From Escherichia coli (GTDB taxonomy: Bacteria > Pseudomonadota > Gammaproteobacteria > Enterobacterales > Enterobacteriaceae), in assembly GCF_002854065.1 (NCBI RefSeq), contig NZ_CP024147.1: a stretch of DNA of 64,000 nucleotides; one strand, 5' to 3'. Below are positions 4,337-59,875 of this stretch, one piece after another; within the stretch, counting starts at the first letter, position 1, and each line of letters opens with the position of its first letter. Position numbers and translations under genes: made by a program. The notes beneath the pieces are model-generated. The model worked only from the letters and a program-made list of their open reading frames with translations, was not told the origin of the DNA and made no database searches.

Positions 4337-5785
4337 ATGAAACTGAACGACAGTAACTTATTCCGCCAGCAGGCGTTGATTAACGGGGAATGGCTGGACG
4401 CCAACAATGGTGAAGTCATCGACGTCACCAATCCGACGAACGGCGACAAGCTGGGTAGCGTGCCGAAAATGGGCGCTGATGAAACCCGCGCCGCTATCGA
4501 CGCCGCCAACCGCGCCCTGCCCGCCTGGCATGCGCTCACCGCCAAAGAACGCGCCAACATTCTGCGCAACTGGTTCAATTTGATGATGGAGCATCAGGAC
4601 GATTTAGCGCGCCTGATGACCCTCGAACAGGGCAAACCACTGGCTGAAGCGAAAGGTGAAATCAGCTACGCCGCCTCCTTTATTGAGTGGTTTGCCGAAG
4701 AAGGCAAACGCATTTATGGCGACACCATTCCCGGTCATCAGGCCGATAAACGCCTGATTGTTATCAAGCAGCCGATTGGCGTCACCGCGGCTATCACGCC
4801 GTGGAACTTCCCGGCGGCGATGATTACCCGTAAAGCCGGCCCGGCGCTGGCGGCTGGCTGCACGATGGTGCTGAAGCCCGCCAGTCAGACGCCGTTCTCT
4901 GCGTTGGCGCTGGCAGAGCTGGCGATCCGCGCGGGCATTCCGGCTGGCGTGTTTAACGTGGTCACCGGTTCGGCGGGCGCGGTGGGTAATGAACTGACCA
5001 GCAACCCGCTGGTACGCAAACTGTCGTTTACCGGCTCGACCGAAATTGGCCGCCAGTTAATGGAACAGTGCGCGAAAGACATCAAAAAAGTGTCGCTGGA
5101 GCTGGGCGGCAACGCGCCGTTTATCGTCTTTGACGATGCCGATCTCGATAAAGCCGTGGAAGGCGCACTGGCCTCGAAATTCCGCAACGCCGGGCAAACC
5201 TGCGTCTGCGCCAACCGTTTATACGTGCAGGACGGCGTGTATGACCGCTTTGCCGAAAAATTGCAGCAGGCGGTGAGCAAACTGCACATCGGTGACGGGC
5301 TGGAGAAAGGCGTCACTATCGGGCCGCTGATTGATGAAAAAGCAGTAGCAAAAGTAGAAGAGCATATTGCCGATGCGCTGGAGAAAGGCGCACGCGTGGT
5401 TTGCGGTGGTAAAGCACACGAACGCGGCGGTAACTTCTTCCAGCCGACCATTCTGGTGGACGTTCCAGCCAACGCCAAAGTGTCGAAAGAAGAGACGTTC
5501 GGCCCCCTCGCCCCGCTGTTCCGTTTTAAAGATGAAGCCGATGTGATCGCGCAAGCCAATGACACCGAGTTTGGTCTTGCCGCCTATTTCTACGCCCGTG
5601 ATTTAAGCCGCGTCTTCCGCGTGGGCGAAGCGCTGGAGTACGGCATCGTCGGCATCAATACCGGGATTATTTCCAATGAAGTGGCCCCGTTCGGCGGCAT
5701 TAAAGCCTCGGGGCTGGGTCGTGAAGGTTCGAAGTATGGCATCGAAGATTACTTAGAAATCAAATATATGTGCATCGGTCTTTAA
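4337..5785 (+). CDS. gabD: Succinate-semialdehyde dehydrogenase (NADP+)
   Basis: 482-aa ORF MKLNDSNLFRQQALINGEWLDANNG..., aldehyde dehydrogenase family. Confidence 0.96.
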   Translation: MKLNDSNLFRQQALINGEWLDANNGEVIDVTNPTNGDKLGSVPKMGADETRAAIDAANRALPAWHALTAKERANILRNWFNLMMEHQDDLARLMTLEQGKPLAEAKGEISYAASFIEWFAEEGKRIYGDTIPGHQADKRLIVIKQPIGVTAAITPWNFPAAMITRKAGPALAAGCTMVLKPASQTPFSALALAELAIRAGIPAGVFNVVTGSAGAVGNELTSNPLVRKLSFTGSTEIGRQLMEQCAKDIKKVSLELGGNAPFIVFDDADLDKAVEGALASKFRNAGQTCVCANRLYVQDGVYDRFAEKLQQAVSKLHIGDGLEKGVTIGPLIDEKAVAKVEEHIADALEKGARVVCGGKAHERGGNFFQPTILVDVPANAKVSKEETFGPLAPLFRFKDEADVIAQANDTEFGLAAYFYARDLSRVFRVGEALEYGIVGINTGIISNEVAPFGGIKASGLGREGSKYGIEDYLEIKYMCIGL

Positions 5786-5798
5786 CTGGAGAATGCGA

Positions 5799-7079
5799 AT
5801 GAGCAGCAATAAAGAGTTAATGCAGCGCCGCAGTCAGGCGATTCCCCGTGGCGTTGGGCAAATTCACCCCATTTTCGCTGATCGCGCGGAAAACTGCCGG
5901 GTGTGGGACGTTGAAGGCCGTGAGTATCTTGATTTCGCGGGCGGCATTGCGGTGCTCAATACCGGGCACCTGCATCCGAAAGTGGTTGCGGCAGTGGAAG
6001 CGCAGTTGAAAAAACTGTCGCACACCTGCTTCCAGGTGCTGGCCTACGAGCCGTATCTGGAGCTGTGCGAGATTATGAATCAGAAGGTGCCAGGCGATTT
6101 CGCCAAGAAAACGCTGCTGGTTACGACCGGTTCCGAAGCGGTGGAAAACGCGGTGAAAATCGCCCGCGCCGCCACCAAACGTAGCGGCACCATCGCTTTT
6201 AGCGGCGCGTATCACGGGCGCACGCATTACACGCTGGCGCTGACCGGCAAGGTGAATCCGTACTCTGCGGGCATGGGCCTGATGCCAGGGCACGTTTATC
6301 GCGCGCTTTATCCTTGCCCACTGCACGGCATCAGTGAAGATGATGCTATCGCCAGTATCCACCGAATTTTTAAAAATGATGCGGCGCCGGAAGATATTGC
6401 CGCCATCGTGATTGAGCCGGTTCAGGGCGAAGGCGGTTTCTACGCCGCTACGCCAGCTTTTATGCAGCGTTTACGCGCGCTGTGTGACGAGCACGGGATC
6501 ATGCTGATTGCCGATGAAGTGCAGAGCGGCGCGGGGCGTACCGGCACGCTGTTTGCGATGGAGCAAATGGGCGTGGCACCAGATCTCACCACCTTTGCGA
6601 AATCGATCGCAGGCGGTTTCCCGCTGGCGGGCGTCACCGGGCGCGCCGAAGTGATGGATGCCGTCGCACCGGGCGGGCTGGGCGGCACCTATGCCGGTAA
6701 CCCGATTGCCTGCGTGGCGGCGCTGGAAGTGTTGAAGGTGTTCGAGCAGGAAAATCTGCTGCAAAAAGCTAACGTTCTGGGGCAGAAGTTGAAAGACGGA
6801 TTGTTGGCGATCGCCGAAAAACACACTGAGATCGGCGACGTACGCGGCCTGGGGGCGATGATCGCCATCGAGCTGTTTGAAGATGGCGATCACAACAAGC
6901 CGGACGCCAAACTCACCGCCGAGATCGTGGCGCGCGCCCGCGATAAAGGTCTGATTCTTCTCTCGTGCGGCCCGTATTACAACGTGCTGCGCATCCTTGT
7001 ACCGCTCACCATTGAAGATGCTCAGATTCGTCAGGGTCTGGAGATCATCAGCCAGTGTTTTGCTGAGGCGAAGCAGTAG
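5799..7079 (+). CDS. gabT: 4-aminobutyrate aminotransferase
   Basis: Recognised GabT sequence from M(S)SNKELMQRRSQAIPRGVGQ; start chosen at second ATG with better spacing to GGAG. Confidence 0.95.
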   Translation: MSSNKELMQRRSQAIPRGVGQIHPIFADRAENCRVWDVEGREYLDFAGGIAVLNTGHLHPKVVAAVEAQLKKLSHTCFQVLAYEPYLELCEIMNQKVPGDFAKKTLLVTTGSEAVENAVKIARAATKRSGTIAFSGAYHGRTHYTLALTGKVNPYSAGMGLMPGHVYRALYPCPLHGISEDDAIASIHRIFKNDAAPEDIAAIVIEPVQGEGGFYAATPAFMQRLRALCDEHGIMLIADEVQSGAGRTGTLFAMEQMGVAPDLTTFAKSIAGGFPLAGVTGRAEVMDAVAPGGLGGTYAGNPIACVAALEVLKVFEQENLLQKANVLGQKLKDGLLAIAEKHTEIGDVRGLGAMIAIELFEDGDHNKPDAKLTAEIVARARDKGLILLSCGPYYNVLRILVPLTIEDAQIRQGLEIISQCFAEAKQ

Positions 7080-7091
7080 CACCGCCCCCAT

Positions 7092-7350
7092 GCCGGAGGC
7101 GACGCTGCGCGTCTTGTCCGGCCTACGAGAGTGTAGGTCGGATAAGGCGTTTACGCCGCATCCGACAATCGGCGCACCCTGCCGGAGGCGATGCTTACGC
7201 GTCTTGTCCGGCCTACGGAAATGTAGATCGGATAAGGCGTTTACGCCGCATCCGACATTCGGCGCATCCATGCCGGAGGCGACGCTGCGCGTCTTGTCCG
7301 GCCTACGAGAGTGTAGGTCGGATAAGGCGTTTACGCCGCATCCTACAATC
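7092..7350. repeat. Three tandem ~90-bp REP/BIME units in gabT-gabP spacer
   Basis: Unit gccggaggcgacgctgcgcgtcttgtccggcctacg...cggataaggcgtttacgccgcatccg repeated three times with few substitutions; classical REP palindromes. Confidence 0.9.
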
Positions 7351-7496
7351 TGTACGTGAACAGGAAGAAATCTATGTTGGCCGGGTAAGGCGGAGCCGCT
7401 CTCCGGCAAAAAGAATCAATAACAATTATACGCGTGACCCGACGCGGGAAATGTCGGGGCGCTCTCCCAAGTGACACACTTTCGAGAGGATTCAGG

Positions 7497-8897
7497 ATGG
7501 GGCAATCATCGCAACCACATGAGTTAGGCGGCGGGCTGAAGTCACGCCATGTCACCATGTTGTCTATTGCCGGTGTTATCGGCGCAAGTCTGTTTGTCGG
7601 TTCCAGCGTCGCCATCGCCGAAGCGGGCCCGGCGGTATTACTGGCCTATCTGTTCGCCGGGCTACTGGTGGTTATGATTATGCGGATGTTGGCGGAAATG
7701 GCGGTTGCCACGCCCGATACCGGTTCGTTTTCCACCTATGCCGATAAAGCTATTGGTCGTTGGGCGGGTTATACCATCGGCTGGTTGTACTGGTGGTTTT
7801 GGGTACTGGTTATCCCGCTGGAAGCCAACATCGCCGCCATGATCCTGCACTCGTGGGTTCCAGGCATTCCCATCTGGTTATTTTCCCTCGTCATTACCCT
7901 CGCCTTAACTGGCAGTAATTTATTAAGCGTTAAAAACTACGGCGAATTTGAGTTCTGGCTGGCGCTGTGCAAAGTCATCGCTATCCTGGCCTTTATTTTC
8001 CTTGGTGCAGTCGCAATTAGCGGTTTTTACCCGTATGCCGACGTGAGCGGTATTTCAAGATTGTGGGATAGCGGCGGCTTTATGCCCAACGGCTTCGGCG
8101 CGGTATTAAGCGCGATGTTGATCACCATGTTCTCGTTTATGGGCGCAGAAATTGTCACCATTGCCGCCGCGGAATCCGACACGCCGGAAAAACATATTGT
8201 CCGCGCCACCAACTCGGTTATCTGGCGTATTTCTATCTTCTATTTATGCTCTATTTTTGTCGTCGTGGCGTTAATACCGTGGAATATGCCGGGGCTGAAA
8301 GCCGTTGGTTCTTATCGCTCGGTTCTGGAATTGCTCAATATTCCCCATGCGAAATTAATCATGGACTGCGTGATATTACTTTCCGTAACCAGTTGCCTGA
8401 ACTCGGCGCTGTATACCGCTTCCAGGATGCTCTACTCCTTAAGCCGTCGCGGTGATGCGCCCGCGGTAATGGGTAAAATCAACCGCAGTAAAACCCCGTA
8501 CGTGGCGGTGTTACTCTCCACCGGCGCGGCATTTTTAACGGTGGTGGTGAACTATTACGCACCTGCGAAAGTGTTTAAATTCCTGATAGACAGCTCCGGC
8601 GCTATCGCCCTGCTGGTTTATCTGGTAATTGCCGTTTCACAGTTGCGGATGCGTAAAATCTTGCTCGCGGAAGGAAGCGAAATCCGCCTGCGGATGTGGC
8701 TTTATCCCTGGCTCACCTGGCTGGTGATTGGCTTTATTACCTTTGTGTTGGTGGTCATGCTATTCCGCCCGGCGCAACAGTTAGAAGTGATTTCCACCGG
8801 CTTATTAGCAATAGGGATAATCTGTACCGTGCCGATTATGGCGCGCTGGAAAAAACTGGTATTGTGGCAAAAAACACCCGTTCATAATACGCGCTGA
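7497..8897 (+). CDS. gabP: GABA permease (APC family)
   Basis: Recognised sequence MGQSSQPHELGGGLKSRHVTMLSIAG...; ORF track start 7434 is an upstream extension into the REP region. Confidence 0.95.
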   Translation: MGQSSQPHELGGGLKSRHVTMLSIAGVIGASLFVGSSVAIAEAGPAVLLAYLFAGLLVVMIMRMLAEMAVATPDTGSFSTYADKAIGRWAGYTIGWLYWWFWVLVIPLEANIAAMILHSWVPGIPIWLFSLVITLALTGSNLLSVKNYGEFEFWLALCKVIAILAFIFLGAVAISGFYPYADVSGISRLWDSGGFMPNGFGAVLSAMLITMFSFMGAEIVTIAAAESDTPEKHIVRATNSVIWRISIFYLCSIFVVVALIPWNMPGLKAVGSYRSVLELLNIPHAKLIMDCVILLSVTSCLNSALYTASRMLYSLSRRGDAPAVMGKINRSKTPYVAVLLSTGAAFLTVVVNYYAPAKVFKFLIDSSGAIALLVYLVIAVSQLRMRKILLAEGSEIRLRMWLYPWLTWLVIGFITFVLVVMLFRPAQQLEVISTGLLAIGIICTVPIMARWKKLVLWQKTPVHNTR

Positions 8898-8917
8898 TAA
8901 TGATCAGGAGTCACACC

Positions 8918-9580
8918 ATGACCATTACGTCTCTGGATGGCTATCGCTGGCTGAAGAACGATATTATTCGCGGTAATTTTCAACCGGATGAAAAATTACG
9001 AATGAGTTTGCTGACATCGCGTTATGCACTTGGCGTTGGGCCGTTACGGGAAGCTCTTTCGCAACTGGTGGCGGAACGGCTGGTCACGGTGGTGAATCAA
9101 AAAGGGTATCGGGTGGCGTCTATGTCAGAGCAGGAGCTGCTCGATATTTTCGATGCCCGCGCCAATATGGAAGCGATGTTAGTGAGTCTGGCGATTGCCC
9201 GCGGTGGCGATGAGTGGGAGGCAGACGTTCTCGCAAAAGCGCATCTGTTGAGTAAGCTTGAGGCCCGTGACGCCAGCGAGAAAATGCTTGATGAGTGGGA
9301 TCTGCGTCATCAGGCGTTTCATACGGCAATTGTGGCGGGCTGTGGTTCTCACTATTTGCTGCAAATGCGTGAACGGTTGTTTGATCTGGCGGCGCGCTAT
9401 CGATTTATCTGGCTGCGACAAACAGTGCTTTCGGTGGAAATGCTGGAGGATAAACACGATCAGCACCAGACCCTGACTGCGGCGGTACTGGCGCGAGATA
9501 CCGCGCGCGCCAGTGAGTTAATGCGCCAGCATTTACTGACGCCAATTCCCATTATCCAGCAGGCGATGGCTGGCAATTAA
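8918..9580 (+). CDS. csiR: GntR-family repressor CsiR
   Basis: Sequence MTITSLDGYRWLKNDIIRGNF...; GGAG RBS 7 nt upstream of this ATG. Confidence 0.93.
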   Translation: MTITSLDGYRWLKNDIIRGNFQPDEKLRMSLLTSRYALGVGPLREALSQLVAERLVTVVNQKGYRVASMSEQELLDIFDARANMEAMLVSLAIARGGDEWEADVLAKAHLLSKLEARDASEKMLDEWDLRHQAFHTAIVAGCGSHYLLQMRERLFDLAARYRFIWLRQTVLSVEMLEDKHDQHQTLTAAVLARDTARASELMRQHLLTPIPIIQQAMAGN

Positions 9581-23339: not shown

Positions 23340-23425
<86 letters not shown>

Positions 23426-32075: not shown

Positions 32076-32148
32076 GAAAGACGCGCATTTGTTATCATCA
32101 TCCCTGAATTCAGAGATGAAATTTTGGCCACTCACGAGTGGCCTTTTT
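32076..32148 (+). ncRNA. micA: MicA (SraD) small regulatory RNA
   Basis: Sequence gaaagacgcgcatttgttatcatcatccctgaattcagagatgaaattttggccactcacgagtggccttttt recognised as MicA, including the terminator hairpin and U-tail. Confidence 0.9.
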
Positions 32149-35057: not shown

Positions 35058-35134
35058 TGGTGCATCCGGGAGGATTCGAACCTCCGACCGCTCGGTTCGT
35101 AGCCGAGTACTCTATCCAGCTGAGCTACGGATGC
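35058..35134 (-). tRNA. argQ: tRNA-Arg (anticodon ACG)
   Basis: Reverse complement gives GCATCCGTAGCTCAGCTGGATAGAGTACTCGGCTACGAACCGAGCGGTCGGAGGTTCGAATCCTCCCGGATGCACCA; gene name assigned by position in the array. Confidence 0.95.
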
Positions 35135-35236
35135 ATCGGGAAAATTTATTTTACTGCTGATATTGATATCGCTACTAAAGCCATATCAAATAAGAAAATC
35201 CATCTTAACCATCATCACTGATGATTACGGAGAATA

Positions 35237-35313
35237 TGGTGCATCCGGGAGGATTCGAACCTCCGACCGCTCGGTTCGTAGCCGAGTACTCTATCCAGCT
35301 GAGCTACGGATGC
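35237..35313 (-). tRNA. argZ: tRNA-Arg (anticodon ACG)
   Basis: Identical 77-nt tRNA-Arg copy. Confidence 0.95.
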
Positions 35314-35375
35314 ATCGGGAAATTTATTTTACTGCTGATATTGATACCGCTACTAAAGCCATATCAAGTAAGAGA

Positions 35376-35452
35376 TGGTGCATCCGGGAGGATTCGAACC
35401 TCCGACCGCTCGGTTCGTAGCCGAGTACTCTATCCAGCTGAGCTACGGATGC
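35376..35452 (-). tRNA. argY: tRNA-Arg (anticodon ACG)
   Basis: Identical 77-nt tRNA-Arg copy. Confidence 0.95.
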
Positions 35453-35516
35453 ATCGGGAAACTTACTTTACTGCAGATTTTTTGATACCGCTACTAAAGC
35501 CGTATCAAGTAAGAGA

Positions 35517-35651
35517 TGGTGCATCCGGGAGGATTACTCGCCTTGCGGCTCGCCCTTCGGGCCGTTGCTAAAGCAACGTTATCCTCCCTGGTGCCTGCGG
35601 TTAGTACCGCCACCTCTTCCATACCTTCATCGCTGAAGGTTACGGAGAATA
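35517..35651 (-). repeat. Spacer element B beginning with a tRNA-Arg 3'-end fragment (copy 2 of 2)
   Basis: tggtgcatccgggaggatt then a diverged copy of element A with the same internal palindromes. Confidence 0.7.
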
Positions 35652-35728
35652 TGGTGCATCCGGGAGGATTCGAACCTCCGACCGCTCGGTTCGTAGCCGA
35701 GTACTCTATCCAGCTGAGCTACGGATGC
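35652..35728 (-). tRNA. argV: tRNA-Arg (anticodon ACG)
   Basis: Identical 77-nt tRNA-Arg copy. Confidence 0.95.
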
Positions 35729-35731
35729 AAA

Positions 35732-35824
35732 TGGCGGTGAGGCGGGGATTCGAACCCCGGATGCAGCTTTTGACCGCATACTCCCTTAGCAGGGGAGCGC
35801 CTTCAGCCTCTCGGCCACCTCACC
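35732..35824 (-). tRNA. serV: tRNA-Ser (anticodon GCU), long variable arm
   Basis: Reverse complement gives GGTGAGGTGGCCGAGAGGCTGAAGGCGCTCCCCTGCTAAGGGAGTATGCGGTCAAAAGCTGCATCCGGGGTTCGAATCCCCGCCTCACCGCCA. Confidence 0.95.
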
Positions 35825-52424: not shown

Positions 52425-52525
<101 letters not shown>

Positions 52526-59789: not shown

Positions 59790-59875
59790 TGCCGGATGCG
59801 GCGTGAACGCCTTATCCGGCCTACATAGTTCGTGCGACATGTAGGCCCGATAAGCGCAGCGCATCGGGCAATCTG
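59790..59875. repeat. REP elements downstream of ascB
   Basis: gccggatgcggcgtgaacgccttatccggcctac and gtaggcccgataagcgcagcgcatcgggca. Confidence 0.85.

Follow-up and report, generated by a model that had tools for sequence, protein, structure and literature searches.

The spacer between gabT and gabP on the Escherichia coli contig NZ_CP024147.1 (assembly GCF_002854065.1) carries a threefold tandem repeat of palindromes, which is crossed by open reading frames on both strands and matched by the Rfam model of the small RNA naRNA4. This raises the question of what kind of element the repeat is, whether any part of it acts as a gene, and whether its number of units bears on the expression of the gab genes. 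We addressed this question in a window of 64,000 nucleotides, which is the whole stretch of DNA that was analysed, and compared the locus with the same site in other genomes. We hold with high confidence that the gabT-gabP array is a non-coding BIME-2 of the Y/Z2 class, comprising three REP pairs in a transcribed spacer; its effects as RNA hairpins and on DNA would be those known from other REP and BIME loci.

In RefSeq relatives, glaH (csiD) and lhgO lie upstream, which gives the cluster glaH(csiD)-lhgO-gabDTP-csiR. Around the repeat, the window contains the following features:

4337-5785, + strand: gabD (NCBIfam equivalog)
5793-7079, + strand: gabT, 4-aminobutyrate--2-oxoglutarate transaminase (NF005985 equivalog, 911.5 bits)
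7083-7350, no strand: BIME-2 array of three tandem 90-bp units (Tandem Repeats Finder, direct-repeat family D1, Rfam naRNA4 matches)
7420-7496, + strand: gabP leader, outside the repeat (invariant block in the spacer alignment and in other species)
7497-8897, + strand: gabP, GABA permease (NF007566 equivalog, 1060.4 bits, aligned over 1-466 of 466; RefSeq relatives)
8900-9580, + strand: csiR (NCBIfam equivalog)

For gabP, the mechanical ORF list gives a GTG start at 7434 (487 aa; 7434-8897), and both the RefSeq relatives and the NCBIfam model favour ATG 7497.

Tandem Repeats Finder (TRF) delimited the repeat at 7083-7350 with a period of 90, 3.0 copies, 88% matches and a score of 439, and a gapless repeat search returned three 88-nt direct-repeat copies (family D1) at spacings of 90 and 90 nt. 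The preliminary description had placed the repeat at 7085-7360, and these coordinates were essentially correct. It had also called the units near-identical, which holds for units 1 and 3 (95.6% gapped pairwise identity) and is generous for unit 2 (89.0% to unit 1 and 86.8% to unit 3). The array has a G+C content of 62% versus 52% for the window, and it lies wholly between the stop codon of gabT and the start codon of gabP and is therefore extragenic. The statement that the units fill the spacer needs to be narrowed: they cover 268 of its 417 nt, and the remainder consists of a degenerate REP at 7376-7409 and the conserved gabP leader.

On the + strand, each unit is composed of a 36-37-nt Z2 palindrome ending GGCCTAC (TGCCGGAGGCGACGCTGCGCGTCTTGTCCGGCCTAC), a 6-nt linker and a 34-nt Y palindrome beginning GTAGG (GTAGGTCGGATAAGGCGTTTACGCCGCATCCGAC), and the units are linked tail to tail by ~13-14 nt. 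The same head-to-head junction (...GGCCTAC-6 nt-GTAGGTCGG...) is found in all three. The individual REPs are as follows:

7091-7126, - strand: Z2-type REP of unit 1, a + strand iREP ending GGCCTAC; RNA hairpin of -20.3 kcal/mol
7133-7166, + strand: Y-type REP of unit 1 (GTAGGTCGGATAAGGCGTTTACGCCGCATCCGAC), inverted repeat I4; hairpin of -17.4 kcal/mol with an AA/GC mismatch, aligned to the naRNA4 Y hairpin
7180-7216, - strand: Z2-type REP of unit 2, a divergent copy with the centre GATGCTTACGCG; 91.9% identical to the Z2 REP of unit 1 (blastn-short); hairpin of -19.7 kcal/mol, aligned to the naRNA4 Z2 hairpin
7223-7256, + strand: Y-type REP of unit 2 (GTAGATCGG...), 97% identical to the Y REP of unit 1; hairpin of -15.3 kcal/mol
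7271-7306, - strand: Z2-type REP of unit 3, 100% identical over 36 nt to the Z2 REP of unit 1
7313-7346, + strand: Y-type REP of unit 3, whose stem foot carries a G>T substitution (CATCCTAC); weaker hairpin of -11.8 kcal/mol
7376-7409, + strand: seventh REP, degenerate and Y-like (GTTGGCCGGGTAAGGCGGAGCCGCTCTCCGGCAA), not part of the tandem array; the fourth copy in direct-repeat family D2; hairpin of -15.4 kcal/mol

All six array REPs have GTAG (Y) or CTAC (Z2, on the + strand), and an internal AA/GC mismatch is present in each of the three Y hairpins. Strains CUWW06 and 100416 have one unit each, and it carries the same stem-foot T as unit 3. Folded singly as RNA, the six array palindromes ranged from -11.8 to -20.3 kcal/mol, and REP pairs reached -39 to -45 kcal/mol per pair. 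The minimum free energy structure of the pair was one long hairpin for units 1 and 3, formed by pairing of Z2 with Y over the 6-nt linker, and two separate REP hairpins for unit 2. The region 7070-7420 as a whole folded at -175.3 kcal/mol (z = -7.9 versus shuffles).

BIME-2 is the Y/Z2 class of bacterial interspersed mosaic element (Gilson, Bachellier, Hofnung and colleagues). The array shares with this class its alternating inverted z2 and y REPs, a 6-nt head-to-head linker, GTAG/CTAC feet, a tandem arrangement, an extragenic position within an operon and copy numbers that vary between strains, and a comparison of the two yielded essentially no difference. As an identity check, its palindromes also match Y and Z2 REPs elsewhere in the genome. 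We therefore regard the array as an actual member of BIME-2, beyond mere resemblance, on the definition given in PMC3333891. The preliminary description, which had spoken of a BIME made of inverted REP pairs, is thereby confirmed and refined to BIME-2, with z2 and y REPs, a short head-to-head linker and tandem units. A pair of inverted REPs is also found in BIME-1 (y + z1, the RIP/RIB elements), which is present in single copy with a long IHF-binding L linker, whereas the array is a tandem with z2 REPs and a 6-nt linker that leaves no room for an L motif. BIME-1 identity was rejected, the array having neither the L linker nor a z1 REP.

Three further REP or BIME loci are present in the window, at 23342-23419, 52436-52513 and 59793-59824; they comprise a BIME-2 junction (76.4 bits to naRNA4), a Z2 and Y pair and a single Y REP. 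The window-wide Rfam scan also returned the MicA sRNA (83.9 bits) and a five-tRNA cluster, - strand, at 32076-32147 and 35061-35824.

To follow the array across strains, we surveyed 5,426 complete E. coli genomes. Multi-unit alleles were counted with a junction-spanning query at a strict E-value; query coverage is unfit for unit counts, as a single unit in the subject is matched by BLAST to each of the three in the query. A REP-type allele with any number of units was found in 4,083 of the 5,426 genomes (75%) and an unrelated, REP-free spacer in 1,304 (24%). The REP-type alleles almost always have one unit, as in K-12, the gabT-gabP spacer of which is 237 nt long; a second unit joined to the first was detected in 80 of the 5,426 genomes (1.5%). 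Examples of the longer forms are EC42405 with two units, TB06051, ECNB21-M121 and 33F4 with three, 2018-05-2CC, FDAARGOS_943 and GPT24-02 with four, and D8 with five. Among the sampled alleles, the units are mosaics from a shared pool of variants.

Strain 042 has 1.5 units in a spacer of 263 nt, in which recombination has joined the Y REP of unit 2 to the degenerate REP that follows (GGTCGGGTAAGGCGGAGCCGCTCTCCGGC). This fusion identifies the corresponding sequence of the window, 7376-7409, as a recombination-competent REP homologue. In the junction-query survey, the fusion form of 042 was present in at least 25 genomes among the best 60 matches listed.

The REP-free allele has ~310 nt of unrelated sequence in place of the BIME and the degenerate REP. 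It was seen in E. coli Nico21(DE3) (BL21 type; 301-610 of the examined segment), in 'E. coli' E69 and in Pseudocitrobacter faecalis DSM 27453, and it bears G-rich palindromes (GTCCCCTCGCCCCTCTGGGGAGAGGG... and CCCTCTCCCTGAGGGAGAGGG), which we take to resemble the boxC repeat class. The REP-free spacer is nearly identical between E. coli and Pseudocitrobacter faecalis, which raises the possibility that the gab region has been exchanged between genera.

The same site was compared in other Escherichia species:

E. albertii: 2 units
E. whittamii: 1 unit
Escherichia sp. E1V33: 3 units
Escherichia sp. MOD1-EC7003: 15.7 units (period 95, 94% matches, TRF score 2595, ~1.49 kb)

The presence of the BIME at this site in other species of the genus implies that it predates E. 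coli. In MOD1-EC7003 the BIME-2 array directly follows gabT (1229-2718 of the examined segment), and to our knowledge it is larger than any known K-12 BIME array. The gabT-gabP site is thus a persistent copy-number hotspot, with 0 to ~16 units across Escherichia. That copy number would vary between strains, as anticipated in the preliminary description, was borne out by the comparison of units, which number 1-5 in E. coli and reach 15.7 in another species of the genus. Variation of BIME copy number between strains had been described before (PMC3333891 and its reference 39). A metagenome-assembled (MAG) contig labelled uncultured Pseudocitrobacter sp. (k127_123204, 8,636 nt) ends within an E. 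coli-like gabT-gabP BIME-2 of at least four units; the array probably interrupted assembly of the short reads, and binning contamination from Escherichia may account for the contig.

The most recent change at the site could be followed in strain CUWW06, whose gabDT is 100% identical to that of the window. Over 3,500 nt before the array and 1,413 nt after it, the two sequences match at every position, and their sole difference is 180 bp, that is, two units. Because 4.9 kb of flanking sequence contains no substitution, the change of two units must be very recent. Units 1 and 3 share identical cores of 72 bp, and a simulated deletion between unit 1 and unit 3 of the window reproduced the CUWW06 spacer exactly, including the diagnostic CATCCTAC. 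A single unequal exchange or replication slippage between these 72-bp cores would yield the 180-bp change. Recombination mediated by TnpA(REP) would be an alternative route for changes in copy number: TnpA(REP) binds GTAG together with a mismatched stem and recombines BIMEs in vitro (PMC3333891). Both determinants are kept by the Y REPs of the array.

We think that deletion from three units to one is the simpler direction, because unit 2, with 87-89% identity to its neighbours, could not arise by duplication of a resident unit. Both of the closest relatives, CUWW06 and 100416, have a single unit. Flanking differences numbered 0 for CUWW06 and 3, all private, for strain 100416, and these three taxa cannot be rooted, so that the counts are uninformative on direction.

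A consensus scan found no sigma-70-like promoter in 6900-7600, and within the same limits there was no + strand intrinsic terminator, the sole site lying on the - strand at 7446-7431. Together, these results fit co-transcription of gabT and gabP by read-through. A separate gabP promoter in the spacer was rejected by the consensus scan of the + strand, and the array as an intrinsic terminator was rejected in the absence of a + strand hairpin with a U run in 6900-7600.

Like the malE-malF intercistronic REP stabilisers, the array places REP hairpins directly 3' of a cistron on a polycistronic mRNA. At other loci, such hairpins stop 3'-to-5' exonucleases and stabilise the mRNA that precedes them, and transcription is partly attenuated by BIMEs (Higgins 1988, Espeli 2001 and Khemici 2004, cited in PMC4550694 and PMC12306157). 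By analogy, the stable pair hairpins (-39 to -45 kcal/mol) on the polycistronic mRNA would impede 3'-to-5' exonucleases and favour partial attenuation of transcription. The gabDT segment would then be held above the level of gabP, and the barrier would strengthen as units are added; our best estimate is that, with three units, it is somewhat stronger between gabT and gabP than with the one unit that is usual.

The position of the array may matter for translation as well. A REP located at most 15 nt past a stop codon reduces translation of the gene that ends there (PMC12306157, citing its reference 17). The TAG of gabT ends at 7079 and the first REP stem starts at 7092, leaving 12 nt between them, which is under the 15-nt limit. 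In its position the array is like the stop-proximal REPs of Liang, Rudd and Deutscher (2015, as cited in PMC12306157). The distance of 12 nt is constant in all E. coli REP-type alleles seen, and it would lower gabT translation. Effects of the array on gabT/gabP mRNA stability, attenuation and gabT translation are thus plausible by analogy.

On DNA, the Y REPs would be likely sites of gyrase binding and cleavage: gyrase binds and cleaves some BIME-2 in vivo with a preference for y REPs (PMC6379681). Neither gabT nor gabP is listed in two supplementary files of this gyrase Topo-seq paper, and our literature search found no paper mentioning the REPs at gabT-gabP.

The gabP leader (~75 nt) is unchanged in every allele examined, including the REP-free one, and across Escherichia species. 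In it, the Shine-Dalgarno sequence (GAGAGGA) is overlapped by a CUCUC...GAGAG pairing and closely preceded by a CA-rich stretch (ACACAC), and the leader is a possible candidate for translational control or an sRNA target site. A search for GcvB regulation of gabP, considered as an explanation of the CA-rich leader, found no paper.

Because 24% of genomes are REP-free and the copies range from 1 to ~16, the array is dispensable for gab function, and we take any effect that it has to be modulatory and dispensable; it may be largely neutral. An alternative takes the array as a selfish or neutral VNTR, generated by slippage, unequal recombination or TnpA(REP), which has no measurable effect on gab expression. 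It agrees with our preferred explanation on the identity of the element and differs on function only. The REP-free allele in 1,304 of the 5,426 genomes, the range of 1 to 15.7 units at one site and the change of two units without accompanying substitutions all speak for neutrality, as do the mosaic units, which are expected from frequent exchange. However, intercistronic REP and BIME hairpins measurably affect mRNA decay, attenuation and translation elsewhere (literature cited in PMC4550694 and PMC12306157), and the constant distance from the gabT stop codon in the E. coli REP-type alleles seen does not favour neutrality either. We consider complete neutrality possible, if on balance unlikely, and retain as the preferred explanation a BIME-2 with plausible modulatory effects.

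The sRNA model required closer inspection. The naRNA4 family (RF02564) matched 7136-7213 with 77.7 bits and 7226-7303 with 61.9 bits at a gathering score of 59.5, and both internal Y-linker-Z2 junctions aligned over the full length of the model (1-77 of 77), with both hairpins matched. The tail-to-tail linkers AATCGGCGCACCC and ATTCGGCGCATCCA fell on the linker of the model derived from REP325; their posterior probability was lower than that of the hairpins. The z2 stems of the array read GCCGGAG...GTCCGGC versus GCCTGAT...ATCAGGC in the Rfam consensus, compensatory changes keeping the stem. The naRNA4 model goes back to REP325, in which six units of Y and Z2 palindromes are connected by a linker l (PMC4550694). 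The array is like REP325 in its Y-l-Z2 type of unit, with a linker that aligns with 'l', and in its full-length matches above the gathering score. It is unlike REP325, which has six units between yjdM and yjdN, in having three units between gabT and gabP. A discrete processed RNA, HU binding and nucleoid condensation are features of REP325, to which the array is likened by sequence alone.

Taken at face value, the two full-length matches above gathering would make the units genes for nucleoid-associated sRNAs of the naRNA4 kind, which bind HU and bridge cruciform DNA as REP325 does. In addition, ~80% of REPs are transcribed, and the RNA requires two hairpins, Y and Z2 (Qian et al. 2015, PMC4550694). 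But the model is built from a BIME-2 unit and scores any Y-linker-Z2 junction: the opposite strand of the array reached 49-50 bits, and because another locus in the window scored 76.4 bits, the model cannot tell REP325 from other BIME-2. Moreover, the locus is gabT-gabP and not REP325, and most E. coli hold one unit here, which provides no complete Y-linker-Z2 junction. An sRNA-gene function of the units is therefore improbable, and we read the naRNA4 matches at this locus as generic BIME-2 matches to a model that is itself a BIME-2 unit, not as sRNA genes.

A more speculative extension of the BIME-2 interpretation is that the number of units serves as a heritable, fast-mutating, contingency-like 'rheostat', which would adjust either the ratio of GabT to GabP or how much Y/Z2 hairpin RNA is made in stationary phase under sigma-S control, and that expansions are selected. 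If this were true, expansions in individual lineages, such as the ~1.5-kb array of 15.7 units in MOD1-EC7003, would be selected and not neutral. We give this idea little credence.

The difference between three units and one might also be an artefact, through collapse or expansion of the repeat in one of the assemblies. The identical 72-bp core could be collapsed by short-read graph assemblers to exactly the one-unit product, and one MAG contig does end inside the array. This origin is nevertheless very unlikely, given that distinct and internally consistent multi-unit alleles occur in dozens of unrelated complete genomes and in other species, and that BIME copy-number polymorphism has been documented independently (PMC3333891). 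We continue to regard the difference as a genuine and recent change in copy number.

Two ORFs cross the array, one of 120 aa on the + strand (6997-7359) and one of 312 aa on the - strand (6471-7409), and the preliminary description had considered such long ORFs on both strands to be spurious. We agree and virtually dismiss the reading of them as real proteins: although long and stop-free, they gave no Pfam match above gathering, only sub-threshold ones (PF13563 with 25.0 bits at a cut-off of 27, PF11516 with 18.6 bits at a cut-off of 25) with no stretch that passes alone; the - strand ORF is largely antisense to gabT; the frames that are stop-free through the array differ between alleles because the units vary from 85 to 91 nt; and no CDS is annotated in the gabT-gabP spacer in any of the 14 RefSeq records examined. 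Protein coding by the array was thus rejected on the Pfam scans and the unconserved openness of the frames. Residues 60-96 of the + strand ORF are a translated REP that comes near the threshold for PF13563 (2_5_RNA_ligase2); this REP-derived pseudo-protein may resemble part of the model, or the match may be purely compositional.

The kind of element, its presence at gabT-gabP in K-12 and the variation of BIME copy number between strains are all established already, and new are only the details, namely the allele frequencies, the change of two units with zero substitutions and the expansion to 15.7 units in a cryptic Escherichia lineage. The finding is of little importance beyond annotation, where recognition of the BIME-2 keeps the ORFs of 120 and 312 aa from being called as genes and explains the naRNA4 matches. 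The array is also likely to break assemblies and might be used as a marker for strain typing. For the biology of Escherichia, its alleles of 0, 1, 2, 3, 4, 5 and ~16 units in near-identical contexts may constitute a natural allelic series for the dosage of REPs in intercistronic decay, attenuation and stop-proximal translation.
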